This document shows positions 18,447 through 27,812 of a DNA stretch of 64,000 nt, piece by piece. The DNA is from an uncultured Candidatus Saccharibacteria bacterium (GTDB taxonomy: Bacteria; Patescibacteriota; Minisyncoccia; Phycocordibacterales; DATDWN01). The stretch's first letter is position 1, and the number at the start of each line of letters is the position of its first letter. Below the pieces are notes generated by a model. That model made no database searches. It was given only the letters and a program-made list of their open reading frames with translations, and was not told the origin of the DNA. The position numbers and the translations under genes are program-made. The DNA is taken from assembly GCA_964468795.1 (NCBI GenBank), contig CAYXWL010000001.1:232246-296245 (forward strand). Direction: 5' to 3'.

Positions 18447-18704
18447 AGTGGTGTGCAGTCCAGATCTTTAGCATTGCGAGCGTTGGCCACCTCCTTGGTT
18501 TTCAACTTAGCCGCTCGCGTAGCGATCTGGTTACGGCTTGTGCCGTCATCCGTTCCCACTTAGGGAACGACTCAATTAGTCCTCTGGCCTCTGCACATGC
18601 CTGGACCGCGATATGTTGGGAACTCCATGCAACATGAGTGCGCACTCCGCCTTTGTTACAGCGCCCTCCGCTAGAGGGTAACGTGCCGTCTTCATGGTGG
18701 AGCT

Positions 18705-18772
18705 CCCATCAAAAGTTTCAAATTATTTTAAAATCTTTGATGGGAGGGCGAACAAATTTCGTTGCTCACCCA
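18705..18772 (-). promoter_or_regulatory. X-type UTR module copy a (CCCAUCAAAAG..CUUUGAUGGGA palindrome + GC hairpin)
   Basis: cccatcaaaag-N22-ctttgatggga-gggcgaacaaatttcgttgctcaccc; upstream of possible 40-aa mini-ORF. Confidence 0.5.
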
Positions 18773-18885
18773 TTGCACTGCGGTCTCGCCCTGCCTTATC
18801 AGCAAACGAAGTGTCTAGCTTCGTTGCTCGCTTAAGTCATTTCTGACATCAGCGAATTCGCGCAGGATCCCCGCTCAAGTTTGTG

Positions 18886-19386
18886 CTAACTCAGTCGACC
18901 CAATAAGGTTTGCCCTGTCGATACCAATCTGGCGTATGACCACCACTGACTGTAATCAGTGAGGATTTCCATACGCCAATGGCTGTCGACTCTGCCGGGA
19001 ATGGGCGGACACAATTCGATGAACGGAGATTGCTGATTGCGCAACTCCTCGTCCCTCGAAACGCGCCTCGCACACACCGGCAAAGTGACACCACTCGCAT
19101 CTTTGACGAATGCGACATTGGCACTGAGCCTCGACGAAAGTTTCCCACTGCATACTCGACCGTCTTTCTTTGGCGCAAGTAAGTTGAGAAAACTGTCGAT
19201 CGAGATAGGGCGATACCTCGTCAGGATCCGCTGCGCGTCGACGTATGTCCCGAGGTCCCAGAGAAGCAAATTGCTCTTCTCTTCGTTCCGGCGCACTTCC
19301 ATATTGCTAAAGTGACGCTCGAAAGTCTCACAAACCTCGAGGACGTTGACACTCACAAGGCGATCCCGAACGATGTAGTTTTCCAT
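18886..19386 (-). CDS. Hypothetical protein (GC-rich element)
   Basis: Start at MENYIVRDRL preceded by AAAGGAGGG SD; 166 aa; no motif recognised. Confidence 0.5.
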   Translation of the reverse strand: MENYIVRDRLVSVNVLEVCETFERHFSNMEVRRNEEKSNLLLWDLGTYVDAQRILTRYRPISIDSFLNLLAPKKDGRVCSGKLSSRLSANVAFVKDASGVTLPVCARRVSRDEELRNQQSPFIELCPPIPGRVDSHWRMEILTDYSQWWSYARLVSTGQTLLGRLS

Positions 19387-19454
19387 GAGCCCTCCTTTGG
19401 GCAAAATACAGACTATTTTTAAAGAACTTTGGAACAATTTTGTTCCTTCAGAAT

Positions 19455-19500
19455 ACTTAACCTAGGTTAAACCCTCTGAAGGAAGTCCGAGGATATATGA
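19455..19500 (-). promoter_or_regulatory. Y-type structured module (CGUCCGAGGAAGUC..GACUUCCUCGGACG alternative hairpins), copy 1
   Basis: ggaagtccgaggatatatgacttcctcggacg; near-identical inverted copy at 26186-26232. Confidence 0.5.
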
Positions 19501-19544
19501 CTTCCTCGGACGATACCGGGCTGACGCGCCGATAGACGTTATTG

Positions 19545-20036
19545 CTAGACTTCTCCCGAGAGATCGTTCGGATCTTCGTGGCCGTCCCACTCGGTGTCGA
19601 CATCTTCTCGCTTCCACTTGAGCCGATGGAGGACGTACTCGATCCTGCCCCTGGATTGTTTGGACAGCTTCCACTTCAACCAGCCGAACTCCTTCTCGAG
19701 CTGAGCAAGATTCTCGATCTGCCAACGCTTCAGGCAAGAAACGAGTCTTGGACTGAAGATGGATTTCGTCGAGATCTCCTCCCGAGGCCGATCTTTCAGC
19801 GAGTCGACGATGGCGTTGAAAGCCATCTCGAACTTCTGTTGCTCTACGGGCGGAGGCGGGAGTGGCTTCGGCGGTTTGCCGGCGTTCTTTCGTGCGGTGC
19901 GAACCTTACGAACTGCCTTGCGGGCAATCTGCATGATTCGCTCCTTCGTGACGGCAAACTCCTGGCCGATGTCGTTGTAGCTCATCCCTTGCGCGAGTAA
20001 GGTCAGGATTCTCTCCTCGCGGGGAGTCGTCCTCAT
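19545..20036 (-). CDS. Sigma-70 region 4-like HTH protein
   Basis: LTPREERILTLLAQGMSYNDIGQEFAVTKERIMQIARKAVRKVR matches sigma r4.2 / LuxR-type HTH; start at MRTTP (ORF-track start is TTG further upstream). Confidence 0.5.
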   Translation of the reverse strand: MRTTPREERILTLLAQGMSYNDIGQEFAVTKERIMQIARKAVRKVRTARKNAGKPPKPLPPPPVEQQKFEMAFNAIVDSLKDRPREEISTKSIFSPRLVSCLKRWQIENLAQLEKEFGWLKWKLSKQSRGRIEYVLHRLKWKREDVDTEWDGHEDPNDLSGEV

Positions 20037-20127
20037 GCGCTCGACTGGTGTGATCTCCGAAATGACAATGCCGAACAAAGTTTTTTTCTGCAATGTTTTT
20101 CTCCAAAGAACAAAGGGAAATTATTTT

Positions 20128-20185
20128 CCCGTCAAAACTCTGAAATAAATTCAAAACTTTGACGGAAGCCGAACCGAAGTTCGGC
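20128..20185 (-). promoter_or_regulatory. X-type UTR module copy f (variant arms CCGUCAAAAC..AACUUUGACGG + hairpin GCCGAAC-cgaa-GUUCGGC)
   Basis: Same architecture with compensatory changes; upstream of 19545..20036. Confidence 0.5.
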
Positions 20186-20423
20186 AAGTGTGATGGTAAA
20201 CTCGGAGTAGTTGTAGCCACTCTTTGCTCTTTAGGTAACTTGCGCCCTTAGCGAATACCCTGATTCCATCGCCAGACAGAATCACGGGAGAGTGGTTAAA
20301 GCTACAACTTCTAACCAACTACTCGCTCAATATGTATCACGGGCCATCACGCTCCACGACACGTCGCAACATTTTTCCTGCTCAAAAAATTCTACGATGT
20401 ACCGTGGAACTTTACAAAGAACT

Positions 20424-20474
20424 TCTGTTTCGTCGTTTCCGACTCATCAGGTGAGACATACATCTCACGACAGG
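20424..20474 (-). ncRNA. Hammerhead ribozyme, type III (copy i)
   Basis: Minus-strand RNA: CUGUC|GUGAGA-UGUAUG-UCUCAC CUGAUGA GUCG-GAAA-CGAC GAA ACAG; all core nts (CUGAUGA, GAAA, GUC) present; stems I/II closed, III open. Confidence 0.8.
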
Positions 20475-20558
20475 TGCCTTGGGTGCTAATCAAGACAAAT
20501 GATTTTTGGCCCTACTGCCCCTTGCGGGTACTCGGACCTTCTGTTGCCAAGCCGGTCA

Positions 20559-26232: not shown

Positions 26233-26301
26233 AGAGTTCAACTTTGTTTGAAAATTCTGAAGGAACGAATAGTTCGTTCTGGTTCTTTGGGGAGGTACAC
26301 C

Positions 26302-26520
26302 ATGTTCGTCAGCAATACCACGATTTTTCACTGCCCGATGTTCGGGTGCGGTCACGAAAACGAACGTTCGAACCGCACGAAGCCGGAAGACATCGTTTGC
26401 GAAGGATGTCACGCACCTTGGTGGCCGATGGAACTCGGTTTCATTGGAAATGATCCGAAAGAAAACATCGAGTTCGCACGGACTCATGATCGGAAAGGAA
26501 ATCTTCGTGAGCTGGCGTAA
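26302..26520 (+). CDS. Small Cys/His-rich protein (72 aa)
   Basis: Start MFVSNTTIF preceded by GGGGAGGTACACC; CPMFGCGH..CEGCHAPWW. Confidence 0.4.
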   Translation: MFVSNTTIFHCPMFGCGHENERSNRTKPEDIVCEGCHAPWWPMELGFIGNDPKENIEFARTHDRKGNLRELA

Positions 26521-26527
26521 TTCTTCT

Positions 26528-26590
26528 GGGCGAACGTAATTTGTTCGCCCTTCCGTCAAAGTTTTCAAGTCATTGAAAGTTTTGATGGGA
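26528..26590 (+). promoter_or_regulatory. X-type UTR module copy d
   Basis: gggcgaac-gtaattt-gttcgccc ttccgtcaaag ttttcaagtcattgaaag ttttgatggga. Confidence 0.55.
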
Positions 26591-26657
26591 CAAAAATTCC
26601 CAAGGTGACCGTAGCCTGCATATCGCAAAATACGGTAAAGAACCCAAGGAGGTTCAA

Positions 26658-27119
26658 ATGTACACTGTCATCATTCACTGGATCACTGGTCGTGCCTCAA
26701 ACGATCCTGCAACGTACACGATTTTGGAGATGCTTGCAAAGCGTAAAGAGCATGAGCAAGTTTTATTCGAACTCGAGAGCGGGATCGAAGCTGCCGGTGG
26801 CGAGTCGGTTGCATGTAGGTCTTGGATAGCGACTAACAACGAGTGGGTCGGTATCGAAACGATGCAAGAGATCAAAATTCAGGTAGCAAGTCTTGAAACA
26901 GCCTGGTTGATCTTCAGCACCGTAAACCATCTACTCGAGATTTGTGGCAACTACAGCGGGAACATCCGACTCGGAGATAGTTTCCACAAGGCTGAAGATC
27001 TTCTATCGCAAGCTGCAAAGTACGAAAAAATTCTGCGCCAGGTCTTCCGAGAAATCAAACGGAAAGACTACTCGGCGGCAGCAATCCGTCGTACTCTGAA
27101 GCAAGCCCTAGAACACTAA
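26658..27119 (+). CDS. Hypothetical protein (153 aa)
   Basis: AAGGAGGTTCAA SD before ATG. Confidence 0.45.
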   Translation: MYTVIIHWITGRASNDPATYTILEMLAKRKEHEQVLFELESGIEAAGGESVACRSWIATNNEWVGIETMQEIKIQVASLETAWLIFSTVNHLLEICGNYSGNIRLGDSFHKAEDLLSQAAKYEKILRQVFREIKRKDYSAAAIRRTLKQALEH

Positions 27120-27158
27120 ACATTTTCAGTGAATGAAAGGGGTTGATAAGTTCTTTTC

Positions 27159-27220
27159 GGGCAAACTCACGTTTGCCCTCCCATCAAAGTTTTGAAACTA
27201 TTTTGAAAGTTTTGATGGGA
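27159..27220 (+). promoter_or_regulatory. X-type UTR module copy e
   Basis: gggcaaac-tcac-gtttgccc tcccatcaaag ttttgaaactattttgaaag ttttgatggga. Confidence 0.55.
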
Positions 27221-27254
27221 CAATTTAGTCCATGGTTCTTTTACAGGAGTAACG

Positions 27255-27500
27255 ATGATGAACAAGAAGGATAGTTGCTTCGAGTGTCAGAAGAGAACGA
27301 ATCCTGGGAAGTGTATCGTGTGCAAGTTTCAGCTCGAAGATGTGAAAGTCGGAGAGCGAGTCACTATTCACACTTCACTTTCAGGTGTCGGCCCAGGGTC
27401 AATCACGGGCACGCTGAACAAGGAATATCACGTGGGAGATCCGAATATTCTTCTGGGACTCTCGTGTGGTGGCTTTGCCAGCATTCCTGCCGACTTTTAA
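27255..27500 (+). CDS. Zinc-ribbon small protein (81 aa)
   Basis: CFECQKRTNPGKCIVCKF; ACAGGAGTAACG SD. Confidence 0.45.
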   Translation: MMNKKDSCFECQKRTNPGKCIVCKFQLEDVKVGERVTIHTSLSGVGPGSITGTLNKEYHVGDPNILLGLSCGGFASIPADF

Positions 27501-27523
27501 CATCTACAGAGAAAAGGAGAAGC

Positions 27524-27778
27524 GTGATCCCAGCTTTGCATGTAGAGATCTTCAGGAAACACCAAGAACTCAACAAGCGCCTGATTGAAGGTAAATCAAT
27601 CTTCTTGAGTGAGATGGAGTCTCTCCTCACGAGAACCAAGAGATGCCAAACAGGACGGCGCGAGACGCTCCGATTCATCGAGCGAACGTGGGGCAACCGA
27701 GTTCGCTTCACGAAAAGAAATGGTGGTCGAGGACTCCGATGGCGAGGGCTTGATCCATCACCTTCTGTTTTTCGTTAA
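27524..27778 (+). CDS. Possible small basic protein from GTG start (low confidence)
   Basis: GAAAAGGAGAAGC SD then GTG; frame otherwise overlaps 27255..27500 so only the distal part considered. Confidence 0.25.
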   Translation: MIPALHVEIFRKHQELNKRLIEGKSIFLSEMESLLTRTKRCQTGRRETLRFIERTWGNRVRFTKRNGGRGLRWRGLDPSPSVFR

Positions 27779-27812
27779 AGGCCCGCTGGGAAACTGGCGG
27801 GTCTTTCTTATT
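27776..27812 (+). terminator. Rho-independent terminator marking right edge of GC-rich element
   Basis: aaaggcccgctgggaaactggcgggtctttcttattt. Confidence 0.5.

Follow-up and report, generated by a model that had tools for sequence, protein, structure and literature searches.

Positions 18450-27812 of a 64-kb stretch of DNA (the window; contig CAYXWL010000001.1, from an uncultured Candidatus Saccharibacteria bacterium) carry arrays of small genes separated by hammerhead ribozymes and by a repeated RNA module, termed X. Comparison with related sequences indicates that the segment is a chromosomal locus type of Candidate Phyla Radiation (CPR) bacteria of the Paceibacteria/Zambryskibacteria-like kind and not an inserted element. 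Loci of this type occur in many of these ultra-small bacteria of groundwater. On balance, its sequence suggests that the locus probably produces a TrmB-controlled, largely untranslated polycistronic transcript, on which boxA-type antitermination would maintain elongation while ribozymes and hairpin modules would cut the RNA into single-gene mRNAs. Confidence differs among the parts of this reading. Punctuation by the hammerheads seems quite likely, a boxA function for the motif GUUCUUU, argued by analogy, is nearly an even call, and RNase III-type processing at X is put forward tentatively. The evidence consists of the sequence elements themselves, their covariation, strand specificity and conservation, and their linkage to TrmB. 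Eight related loci were fetched by way of TrmB homologues, and L077 and L078 came from a DNA pattern scan. Most related loci are contigs of metagenome-assembled genomes (MAGs) or of metagenomes, with uncertain binning. Three-digit L numbers denote loci, while L, C and R with a single digit denote genes.

The GC content of 18450-27812 is 0.476 overall, compared with 0.396 for the remaining window. The compositional discontinuity noted in the initial annotation is therefore real, but its figure of about 55% was too high and the segment is uneven: the left array has a GC content of 0.508, the right array 0.486, a small RNA (sRNA) 0.544, the TrmB gene 0.323 and the promoter gap 0.192. Two divergent arrays of small genes are present as described there. 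Re-derivation of the genes from the sequence gave six on the minus strand (L1-L6, 22743-18886), six on the plus strand (R1-R6, 25354-27778) and a further pair on the minus strand (C1-C2, 25222-24482). The claim that strong Shine-Dalgarno (SD) sequences set array genes apart from host genes also held. A match of at least 5 nt to AAGGAGGTGA lies upstream of 13/14 array genes (L1-L6, R1-R6, C1-C2) versus 2/34 host genes, and the contrast recurs in four related genomes. Host genes of the lineage are nearly devoid of SD sequences, since a match of at least 5 nt was found in only those 2/34 genes of the window and in 2/51 genes of the relatives (L094, L097, L099, L101). Codons of the cargo genes are GC-rich, with third-position GC (GC3) of 0.5-0.75 versus 0.2-0.4 in the host.

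The two best sigma-70 promoter matches in 18-28.5 kb are back to back, and the promoters, which had been called perfect, are near-consensus, the best matching at 11/12 positions. The left-array transcript would be ∼4.7 kb long and 55% untranslated. The transcription signals are as follows.

23117-23145, minus strand: left-array promoter, TTGACA-17-TATACT, 11/12; kept in L078, L094, L097, L099 and L100.
23281-23309, plus strand: sRNA promoter, TTGACA-17-TATACT, 11/12.
25256-25284, plus strand: right-array promoter, TTGACA-17-TAGGAT, 10/12.
18420-18443, minus strand: intrinsic terminator of the left array, an 8-bp stem followed by TTTCTTTATT.
23616-23649, plus strand: sRNA terminator, from the terminator scan.
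27777-27806, plus strand: right-array terminator, from the terminator scan.

Hammerheads were identified by searching 17500-28800 (11 kb) with the Rfam family RF00008. The three that had been reported just after gene stops in the left array were recovered, starting 48, 4 and 82 nt past the stops of L2, L3 and L4, respectively.

22031-22085, minus strand: hammerhead 1, 41.5 bits, E 2.3e-6, cleavage predicted after C22078; with an upstream hairpin it extends to 22106.
21314-21368, minus strand: hammerhead 2, 44.4 bits, E 3.3e-7, cleavage predicted after C21361.
20422-20476, minus strand: hammerhead 3, type III, 42.3 bits, E 1.3e-6, cleavage predicted after C20469.

These sequences were aligned with 10 further CPR hammerheads. 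The cores CUGANGA and GAAA are invariant in 13/13 copies, and the cleavage triplet is GUC, or GUU in L078 and L098. Over the alignment 98.4% of the pairs form and 8/14 pairs show compensatory changes. The pairing score was reached by 0/500 shuffles, and slid controls came nowhere near it. Stem III (CUGU/ACAG) is invariant in 13/13 copies while stems I and II covary. By these sequence criteria the three RNAs of the window are genuine type III hammerheads. A conserved hairpin, CGUCUNCCRGAGCGUCAUCCYGG, lies 5' of most copies. The predicted cuts delimit units of 717 nt (holding L3) and 892 nt (holding L4), each bracketed by hammerheads. The ribozyme looks as if it had been inserted into CUGUUCUUU, between CUGUUC and UUU, because the same flanks are found without a ribozyme at 6300-6330 of L078, where the sequence reads GGUACUGUUCUUU.

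Hammerheads also occur in L078, L096 (degenerate), L097, L098, L099 (four in a row) and L101 (three), and in the metagenome loci L108/L135, L126 and L140. Some genomes have several TrmB paralogues (L101 5004-7645; L097 4059-8764). The second paralogue of L101 has its own divergent array of small genes, with two of the three L101 hammerheads. Each hammerhead of the window is followed by a structured, untranslated spacer, termed Z, that begins with a boxA-like motif.

21652-22030, minus strand: Z1, boxA-like motif at 22025-22031 and a 379-nt structured untranslated spacer before L3; minimum free energy (MFE) -143 kcal/mol.
21038-21313, minus strand: Z2, boxA-like motif at 21305-21311, a long hairpin and a structured spacer.
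20191-20421, minus strand: Z3, boxA-like GUUCUUU at 20416-20422, a long hairpin and a structured spacer; the first ∼140 nt are paralogous to Z2.

The X module was modeled by covariance, and the model (R1) was run over the 64 kb. Nine copies were found, all within 18694-27243 and none elsewhere in the window. All 9/9 are sense-oriented, scoring 48-70 bits on the sense strand versus 21-35 bits antisense.

22363-22483, minus strand: X left copy 1, 56.1 bits, with an enlarged P2 loop.
20952-21037, minus strand: X left copy 2, 55.8 bits, arms UCUCGUCAGAG/UAUGACGAGG, compensatory relative to the consensus.
20104-20190, minus strand: X left copy 3, 68.3 bits, predicted fold P1+P2, z = -5.5.
19420-19507, minus strand: X left copy 4, 64.7 bits; taken with the 44 nt that extend it upstream, it shares 84-95% identity with the right-array copy at 26169-26288.
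18694-18767, minus strand: X left copy 5, 47.5 bits, E 6e-10, followed by no SD-led open reading frame (ORF).
25670-25753, plus strand: X right-array copy 1, 67.8 bits.
26200-26288, plus strand: X right-array copy 2, 60.4 bits.
26528-26612, plus strand: X right-array copy 3, 63.5 bits.
27156-27243, plus strand: X right-array copy 4, 70.1 bits, with GUUCUUU on both flanks (27150, 27235).

An X module consists of a GC-rich hairpin (P1) abutting an 18-bp hairpin (P2), then a short hairpin (P3), then GUUCUUU, usually with an SD sequence and start codon 7-20 nt past GUUCUUU. P1 is a stem of 6-10 bp whose sequence is unrelated between copies, and it was present in 33/34 copies examined. The lower stem of P2 reads UCCCAUCAAAG/UUUUGAUGGGA. 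Compensatory changes had been reported for the repeated modules, and the covariation held when re-examined with many more homologues aligned: in 32 copies 97.7% of P2 is paired and 13/18 pairs show compensatory changes. One G-U pair of P2 is kept in 31/32 copies. Since the opposite strand would have a C-A mismatch at this position, the X structure is that of the sense RNA. The predicted MFE fold is P1 directly abutting the full P2, with z of -3 to -6.7. P3 uses the same GGGA that closes P2. The P3 pairs GGGAC/GUCCC, GGAACGAA/UUCGUUC and GAGGCAAA/UUUGUCUC change together with the P2 arms, which suggests that P2 and P3 are alternatives and that both have been kept. The P2 3' arm has a purine-rich end (AAGGAAC or GGGAGAA) to which GUUCUUU is complementary, for example at 26262-26288 of the window and at 4162-4246 of L081, and the state of P2 could therefore decide whether GUUCUUU is masked or exposed.

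CPR MAGs and groundwater metagenomes together yielded more than 70 copies of X. When one genome per species was scanned for the pattern, ∼22 true sites emerged, the other matches being unrelated perfect palindromes. The true sites were in CPR MAGs (labeled Saccharibacteria, Parcubacteria, Zambryski-, Wildermuth-, Sungiibacteria and Minisyncoccia) or on small contigs binned with other taxa. A metagenome scan added ∼35 copies, mostly from groundwater. The groundwater sources of such contigs include 0.1-um fractions of Hainich H43/H51 and the samples ERZ27283008 and SRR14932508, and arrays are also carried by complete genomes such as GCA_030649135.1, GCA_049296895.1 and the 504-kb contig of ERZ1760152. 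X had no Rfam match in 17500-28800 or in the related loci. By covariation and distribution X is a real, widespread and previously undescribed RNA motif. In L093 an X module (5333-5414) lies ahead of a 604-aa ABC transporter gene and not a small ORFan, so X is not confined to arrays of mini-genes. Two other roles for X were rejected. A DNA operator for TrmB does not fit copies that, within one genome, carry different mutually compensating arms together with a strand-specific G-U pair, and a self-cleaving ribozyme does not fit a structure with no conserved unpaired core or junction.

GTTCTTT has eight sense-strand occurrences in the 4.7-kb left array. Over nine arrays (34 kb) there are 49 sense and 4 antisense occurrences, with ∼2 expected. 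GUUCUUU follows P3 in nearly all X modules, and GUUC(U/A)UU(R)AAA is found within ∼10 nt after 12/13 aligned hammerheads, L099c having the one-base variant GAUCUUUAAAA. The second, degenerate hammerhead of L078 is also trailed by a boxA-like motif. P3 or hammerhead stem III lies 1-9 nt 5' of the motif. The C of GUUCUUU is invariant, and the motif also occurs without a preceding hairpin, past stop codons, and 2-9 nt past hammerheads. GUUCUUUR matches the E. coli boxA core GCUCUUUA at 7/8 positions. The motif also equals GTTCTTTGAAAACT, a conserved 16S-23S spacer sequence of Mollicutes and Firmicutes that is used as a Mollicutes primer and that we take to be the boxA of these bacteria. The boxA of Aquifex is GGCUCCUUGGCA, from which that of E. 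coli differs at positions 1, 6 and 9 (PMC3177189); the E. coli rrn boxA, UGCUCUUUAACA, was derived from the differences listed there. NusB-NusE binds 8 nt of boxA plus sequence-independent double-stranded RNA contiguous with the boxA 5' end (PMC3177189), and boxA shields untranslated CRISPR arrays from Rho (PMC7665894). To judge from the sequence, the hairpin-then-motif arrangement at this locus is the geometry of a NusB-NusE binding site. By analogy the motif as RNA, GUUCUUUGA, resembles such a site and is a candidate for one.

The same parts recur beside TrmB in related genomes. In nine loci (L077, L078, L094, L096-L101) an sRNA homologue lies beside TrmB in a stretch without called genes, followed by X arrays of small genes without Pfam matches. 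The consensus promoters, a ∼335-nt leader, L1 (or an alternative small protein) and a motif termed W are found in most, not all, of the nine. The loci belong to Paceibacteria/Zambryskibacteria-like bacteria, and beyond the core block they hold variable small ORFans that are often separated by hammerheads. Their neighbors are housekeeping genes (ClpP, RNase Y, HU, NusA, pyrophosphatase, S15, RuvA). Loci found by DNA pattern alone (L044, L050, L051, L057, L070, L081, L103, L120, L136, L138) likewise have TrmB homologues no more than a few kb from X. The arrays of the relatives all fall at 0.51-0.56 GC, with host values spread from 0.39 to 0.53. The GC jump therefore belongs to the locus as a standing property and does not mark a recent insertion. 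All 7/7 cargo pairs shared between genomes are collinear, including L1-L2-L3 with L099, in what is a small sample. Cargo evolves faster than TrmB, with 63% identity for L2 and 35% for L3 versus 79% for TrmB.

The TrmB gene and the RNAs around it are as follows.

23653-24393, minus strand: C3, TrmB-family regulator with an N-terminal winged helix, PF01978 E 5.9e-16, above the curated cut-off.
23181-23198, strand not assigned: candidate TrmB operator, the partly palindromic TAGCTATAAATATAGCCA between the divergent promoters; GGCTATATTT.TAGCTA in L078.
23315-23652, plus strand: sRNA, ∼340 nt, GC-rich, ending at the terminator 23616-23649.
22776-23110, minus strand: leader RNA, ∼335 nt, structured, ending in the boxA-like GUUCUUUACAUUAACAA.
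22495-22559, minus strand: W motif, GGGUGCGUCA-CUUCGG-CCAAGGCA-CCGAAG-UUG..GUAAAAGCAUGGG, kept after the first small gene.
18451-18607, minus strand: Y element, 5' GGUCCAGGCNGGUGCAG..GGAC and 3' CUGGACUGCACAC, with an internal perfect SD-like box AAGGAGGUG.

The TrmB gene is host-like, with GC 0.32, GC3 0.21 and no SD sequence. At E<=1e-20 the protein has 155 homologues, and those most similar to it (60-80% identity) come from MAGs of Zambryskibacteria, Minisyncoccia and Paceibacterota; this distribution marks it as a conserved gene of the lineage. The sRNA contains two mini-ORFs, each an SD sequence followed by Met-X-Asp-stop, at 23357-23368 (ATGCACGACTAG) and 23449-23460 (GTGGACGACTAG). Over 10 loci their starts are ATG or GTG, the Asp codon is GAC or GAT, all three stops are used and the middle codon is variable; in more distant loci the mini-ORF is Met-Glu-Asp-stop. 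This is the pattern expected of a translated mini-ORF. The sRNA might be a minigene or a ribosome sensor. Its homologues were found at 1615-1994 of L078, at 10735-11027 of L094, and in L096-L101, L077, L044, L070 and L081. The GACUAG of each mini-ORF can pair with a CUAGUC that lies between the two.

In five sequences 25 of the 90 predicted pairs of the leader show a compensatory change. The core of W is near-identical in L078, L097, L077 and L044, with a variant in L070. Y has eight copies, in the window, L078 (3), L094, L097 and L099 (2), with up to three per array. Its ends are invariant and can pair (GUGCAG/CUGCAC), and its closing 5-bp helix covaries (GGUCC/GGACU, UGUCC/GGACA, ACUCC/GGAGU). 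A putative seventh gene of the left array, L7 (18576-18695), was rejected; it overlaps the conserved Y RNA and has no SD sequence. When 17500-28800 was searched with Rfam 15 (E<=10), the hammerheads were matched and Y, W, Z, the leader and the sRNA, like X, were not, nor were these five matched in the related loci. A weak Moco-riboswitch match (E 0.37) and sRNA matches (E 1.7-2.8) were at chance level.

The array genes are listed by operon.

22567-22743, minus strand: L1, 58-aa basic protein, ..KILARAGY..RESV.A.S.PCGGKPGYRKK, leading the array in most relatives.
22134-22352, minus strand: L2, 72 aa, 63% identical to the second array gene of L099.
21373-21651, minus strand: L3, 92-aa basic protein, 35-37% identical to the third array gene of L099.
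20559-20939, minus strand: L4, 126 aa, several CxxC pairs, weak zinc-finger/ribbon matches.
19545-20093, minus strand: L5, 182 aa, stand-alone sigma-A region-4-like helix-turn-helix (HTH) and a helical C-terminal domain.
18886-19386, minus strand: L6, 166-aa ORFan with an AAGGAGG SD sequence.
24995-25222, minus strand: C1, strong SD sequence; first gene of the C1-C2 operon (24482-25267, GC 0.47, promoter 25267-25239).
24482-24979, minus strand: C2, DUF6624, strong SD sequence.
25354-27778, plus strand: right array, six SD-led small ORFans, R1-R6.
25354-25662, plus strand: R1, SD-led small ORFan.
25783-26154, plus strand: R2, SD-led small ORFan.
26302-26520, plus strand: R3, SD-led small ORFan, Cys-rich.
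26658-27119, plus strand: R4, SD-led small ORFan, whose homologues are itself and one fragment (2 matches).
27255-27500, plus strand: R5, SD-led small ORFan, Cys-rich.
27524-27778, plus strand: R6, SD-led small ORFan.

The products agree with those predicted at the outset. L5 matches Pfam Sigma70_r4 (E 1.7e-7), C3 is the TrmB protein listed above, and L4, R3 and R5 are Cys-rich. The best fold matches of the L5 predicted structure are to sigma-A domain 4 (4g8x_A, 41% identity, TM 0.71 on target), and the model supports only a sigma region-4 domain. L5 has just 2 homologues in 5.8e9 proteins. The AlphaFold model of L6 was unusable (pLDDT 33). L4 gave one marginal PADLOC match, PDC-S64 (E 0.004). 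Whether the small ORFs are conserved core genes of the lineage was a question set beforehand, and the result was mixed: TrmB, L1 and, in part, L2, L3 and C1 are conserved, while most cargo genes, by homology search, are ORFans. The L1 family has 13 representatives in an exhaustive search of 1.8e9 proteins, and comparison of L1 with L078 shows a Ser codon switch (AGT/TCT) and synonymous changes. Substitutions in L2 relative to L099 are of the coding type (19/8/24 by codon position). C1 is 91% identical to an array-leading gene of L098, with 30 synonymous versus 7 non-synonymous codon changes, a clear sign in the sequence of purifying selection. A small basic protein (..LP.QTGG....KG.G.YNR..) follows X modules at 6422-6559 of L078 and at ∼201 of L051 (minus strand). 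These two CPR genomes are only distantly related, and few other cargo families are common to different classes.

The initial annotation read the segment as an RNA-processing gene array, a reading that the genuine hammerheads and the covarying modules support. The model that follows would involve cleavage in vivo, antitermination, an RNase acting at X, regulation by TrmB and some biological role for the cargo, all of which we infer from sequence. The TrmB-family regulator would control the two very strong back-to-back promoters. One would give the ∼340-nt sRNA with two ribosome-binding sites, each serving a three-codon Met-X-Asp ORF. The other would give the ∼4.7-kb polycistronic, structured transcript, and because 55% of it is untranslated, processive antitermination would be needed. 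The boxA-like GUUC(U/A)UU(R)AAA would recruit NusB/NusE-type antitermination factors and so keep the array transcript elongating. The three hammerheads would self-cleave the nascent RNA co-transcriptionally, and a double-strand RNase cutting X in P2 would be a second processing route. We propose that each cut severs the tether between the upstream boxA complex and the polymerase, so that a fresh boxA would be needed after each cut. After a cut in P2, P1 would cap the 3' end of the upstream mRNA, while the freed GGGA would fold into P3 and cap the 5' end of the downstream mRNA. The products would be stable single-gene mRNAs, each with a strong SD sequence, in a host that otherwise does not use SD sequences. 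Their translation would yield fast-evolving small proteins, some Zn-ribbon-like, one a free sigma-A region-4 domain and others ORFans. The same parts would also make up two further units, the right array and the C1-C2 operon.

Several observations weigh against this model or parts of it. All 3/3 hammerheads of the window (41.5-44.4 bits) fall under the Rfam gathering threshold of 48.5 bits, although the low scores come from a short stem III and small loops and not from core defects. The support for P3 in each copy is modest, with a mean stem of 6.0 versus 4.2 in shuffles. Sequence conservation in the fully paired lower stem of P2 exceeds what RNase III needs and points to a sequence-specific partner. 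GUUCUUU is also found upstream of P1 in about half of the X modules and is absent there in the other half. It lies directly before the SD sequence in many units and could alternatively be a translation or RNase signal. The rRNA genes that might show the lineage's own boxA were sought in the window and in all fetched loci and none was found, and for this reason the boxA assignment rests on the E. coli and Firmicutes consensus. Finally, the GC-rich codon usage of the cargo and its use of SD sequences are not explained by punctuation and antitermination.

The initial annotation also proposed that the 9.4 kb is one self-contained, phage- or plasmid-derived mobile unit, such as a satellite, a prophage remnant or a selfish cassette recently acquired from a GC-richer source. 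The jump in GC and codon usage, the un-hostlike SD sequences, the ORFan cargo, the accessory surroundings (ParB-methylases, MazF, the serine recombinase at 29426-30757, and a reverse transcriptase (RT) by a tRNA-Ser) and the fact that clustered hammerheads elsewhere are typically in prophages (PMC3088659) would all suit such an origin. This idea has already been refuted in large part and we regard it as improbable. The segment is a mosaic of the left array with the sRNA, a TrmB gene of host composition in its middle, the C1-C2 operon and a right array that stands apart. In nine loci the core block recurs by orthologous TrmB genes among housekeeping genes, the shared cargo is collinear, and array GC stays within its narrow range even in hosts of 0.53 GC. 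As first reported, domain searches of the array proteins matched no capsid, terminase, replication or integrase gene within the segment. The left array had no blastn match in phage and plasmid collections, and PHROG and PADLOC searches of the array proteins gave nothing except the L5 sigma/HTH domain and the marginal L4 match. In IMG/VR, a scan for the hammerhead core gave 4 matches, to unrelated phage ribozymes without GUUCUUU, and a scan with an X 15-mer gave 36 chance matches without a hairpin. An integron-like cassette array would account for same-orientation genes separated by imperfect hairpins of constant shape and varied sequence, and for variable cargo behind a conserved promoter platform. 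In such an array each small gene with its X hairpin would be a cassette, and X (or GTTCTTT) would be the recombination site as folded single-stranded DNA, in which a G-T wobble is tolerable too. L096 and L100 have a tyrosine recombinase immediately next to the locus, and L101 has one nearby. We consider this highly improbable. There is no integrase at the window locus (16.5-29.4 kb) or in L094, L097 and L099, and the recombinase looks like a housekeeping XerC/D neighbor of S15. The hairpin arms read UCCCAUCAAAG/UUUGAUGGGA and no RYYYAAC/GTTRRRY inverse-core pair is present, the flanking GTTCTTT is a direct and not an inverted repeat, X is always sense to transcription at a fixed distance from the SD sequence, and the 7/7 collinear cargo pairs, few as they are, show no shuffling.

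Other alternatives accept the RNA nature of the modules. X could be a series of attenuators or protein-controlled switches that act gene by gene without cleavage, P2 being the antiterminator, P3 with the U-rich GUUCUUU a weak terminator, and the P2 stem the operator of an RNA-binding regulator, for example L1. P2 and P3 do compete for one GGGA and all three strands change together, the terminator scan marks six P3+GUUCUUU sites, and the lower P2 stem sequence is kept across CPR classes, which suggests a specific binding partner. We nevertheless think this unlikely. The invariant C of GUUCUUU and its occurrence free of hairpins, past stops and 2-9 nt past hammerheads misfit a simple U-tract, and P2 is far more stable than P3 and forms first, so that termination would need an active disruptor. 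The RNA between hammerheads (717 and 892 nt) might instead be excised and circularized by reverse hammerhead ligation or RtcB, giving mRNAs that are circular or re-joined, much as retrozymes and viroid-like RNAs are. In favor of this, the hammerheads form a tandem series with one orientation, and each unit holds a complete SD-led ORF. With stem III invariant in 13/13 copies, the 3' end of a unit could pair with its own 5' ribozyme body and rebuild a nicked hammerhead. That invariance is also explicable by the conserved flanks that overlap stem III, with a hairpin upstream and the boxA-like motif downstream, and many arrays have a single hammerhead (L078, L097, L098). In comparable bacterial arrangements Perreault et al. 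looked for RNAs that had been circularized or spliced, without detecting any (PMC3088659). Circularization is compatible with the cleavage and antitermination model and does not exclude it, but we judge it quite doubtful.

Several known systems resemble the locus in part. In the early transcript of phage T7, RNase III cuts between small genes leave 3' and 5' stem-loops that stabilize monocistronic mRNAs. At the locus described here small genes of one long transcript are likewise separated by hairpins. The X hairpin differs in the conserved sequence of its lower stem, the near-invariant G-U, the abutting P1 and the alternative P3; the setting is not a phage, and cleavage is suggested by analogy. 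Integron attC arrays share same-orientation small genes that each have an imperfect hairpin, a common promoter and variable cargo, while here there is no IntI, no inverse-core/core pair and no shuffling seen, and the structure is strand-matched to the mRNA. Retrozymes and viroid-like RNAs share tandem type III hammerheads with a short stem III and units of ∼0.7-0.9 kb. The present units differ in being DNA-encoded and single-copy, with different coding cargo and no monomer repeats. Translation of lambda bar-type minigenes releases peptidyl-tRNA or stalls ribosomes. The sRNA resembles them in carrying SD-led start-X-Asp-stop ORFs, and differs in having two per RNA, conserved beside a regulator gene in CPR bacteria, with a conserved Asp codon. 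The boxA/boxB antitermination systems of rrn operons, lambda nut and CRISPR also place an 8-nt pyrimidine-rich motif by a hairpin in largely untranslated, Rho-exposed transcripts (PMC3177189, PMC7665894, PMC5725501). Those have one or two boxA per operon, while the left array has 8 boxA-like motifs in 4.7 kb, including one after each predicted cut.

Among described systems, prophage transcripts with clustered hammerheads come nearest (Perreault et al. 2011, PMC3088659). There several hammerheads in one orientation lie between single genes or short blocks of unknown function, with a MarR/wHTH-type regulator nearby, and the ribozymes are proposed to divide a long transcript into mRNAs of gene length. 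Such hammerheads, several of them placed around single genes, do process polycistronic RNAs, both in vitro and in vivo (PMC3088659). The present case differs in being a conserved chromosomal locus of CPR bacteria with no recognizable prophage, in the sharing of the job with X, and in the boxA-like motif that follows each ribozyme; a conserved TrmB, a mini-ORF sRNA, a leader, W and Y were not described for the prophage arrangement. The literature was searched for hammerheads and other ribozymes of CPR/Patescibacteria, and no account of this kind of ribozyme turned up. The CPR setting, the motifs X, Y, W, leader and sRNA, the pairing of hammerhead with boxA, the link to TrmB and the SD/GC contrast with the host appear to be new.

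To the left of the segment, 11009-18414 is accessory DNA that includes an IrrE-like peptidase (11009-11545), two DNA methylases (11590-13621), one of them ParB-fused, a 612-aa protein without a Pfam match, a MazF toxin (16116-16508), a NUDIX-HD protein and an EEP nuclease. To the right, the large serine recombinase (29426-30757) lies 1.6 kb from the right array. It is followed by a GC-rich (0.52) region at 31-32.5 kb, without Pfam-matching ORFs and with a weak RT-16 RNA match (E 0.59), by an RT split into two ORFs (32629-33231 and 33171-33719), and by tRNA-Ser (33793-33883). The interval 29426-33883 looks like a separate RT-with-ncRNA (non-coding RNA) element at a tRNA gene. A XerC/D-like tyrosine recombinase is beside or near the TrmB array in 3/9 relatives (L096 9041-9967, L100 13883-14791, L101 15989-16936), always close to rpsO, and is probably a housekeeping neighbor. 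Elsewhere in the window there is a tRNA-Ile with anticodon UAU, uncommon in bacteria, at 39805-39879, and a transfer-messenger RNA at 43147-43534 with a predicted tag ending ...FSPALA.

The arrays use consensus sigma-70 promoters, strong SD sequences, a boxA-like motif, ribozymes and GC-rich codons of ∼0.52 GC whatever the host, and they sit in AT-rich episymbiont genomes. It is conceivable, though we rate it as very unlikely, that they form a distinct expression system written in 'generic bacterial' signals, with genes made for translation outside the normal host regime. One possibility would then be a special ribosome state with a free anti-SD, sensed or titrated by the SD sequences of the sRNA mini-ORFs and by the SD mimic of Y. 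The other would be translation in the partner cell of the symbiont after transfer, by analogy with T-DNA, which carries plant signals. If this were true, five RNA classes would be new (X, Y, W, the leader and the sRNA), and the units flanked by hammerheads might exist as circular mRNAs.

Under the cleavage and antitermination model, the locus offers a conserved comparative system for the function of bacterial hammerheads, in which ribozymes alternate with a second module and each is trailed by an antitermination-like signal. It also yields a testable idea, that cutting of nascent RNA severs the boxA tether and that boxA is re-issued after every cut. For genome scanning, the locus shows that 'foreign' signals in a GC island do not have to mean a recent insertion. 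Structured RNA motifs absent from Rfam, five or more of them, are present in CPR/Patescibacteria, a huge and poorly understood group with tiny genomes. In such genomes 3-7 kb of RNA-rich array must pay for itself, and SD-led, GC-rich genes inside AT-rich genomes without SD sequences are a natural experiment on the specialization of translation initiation.

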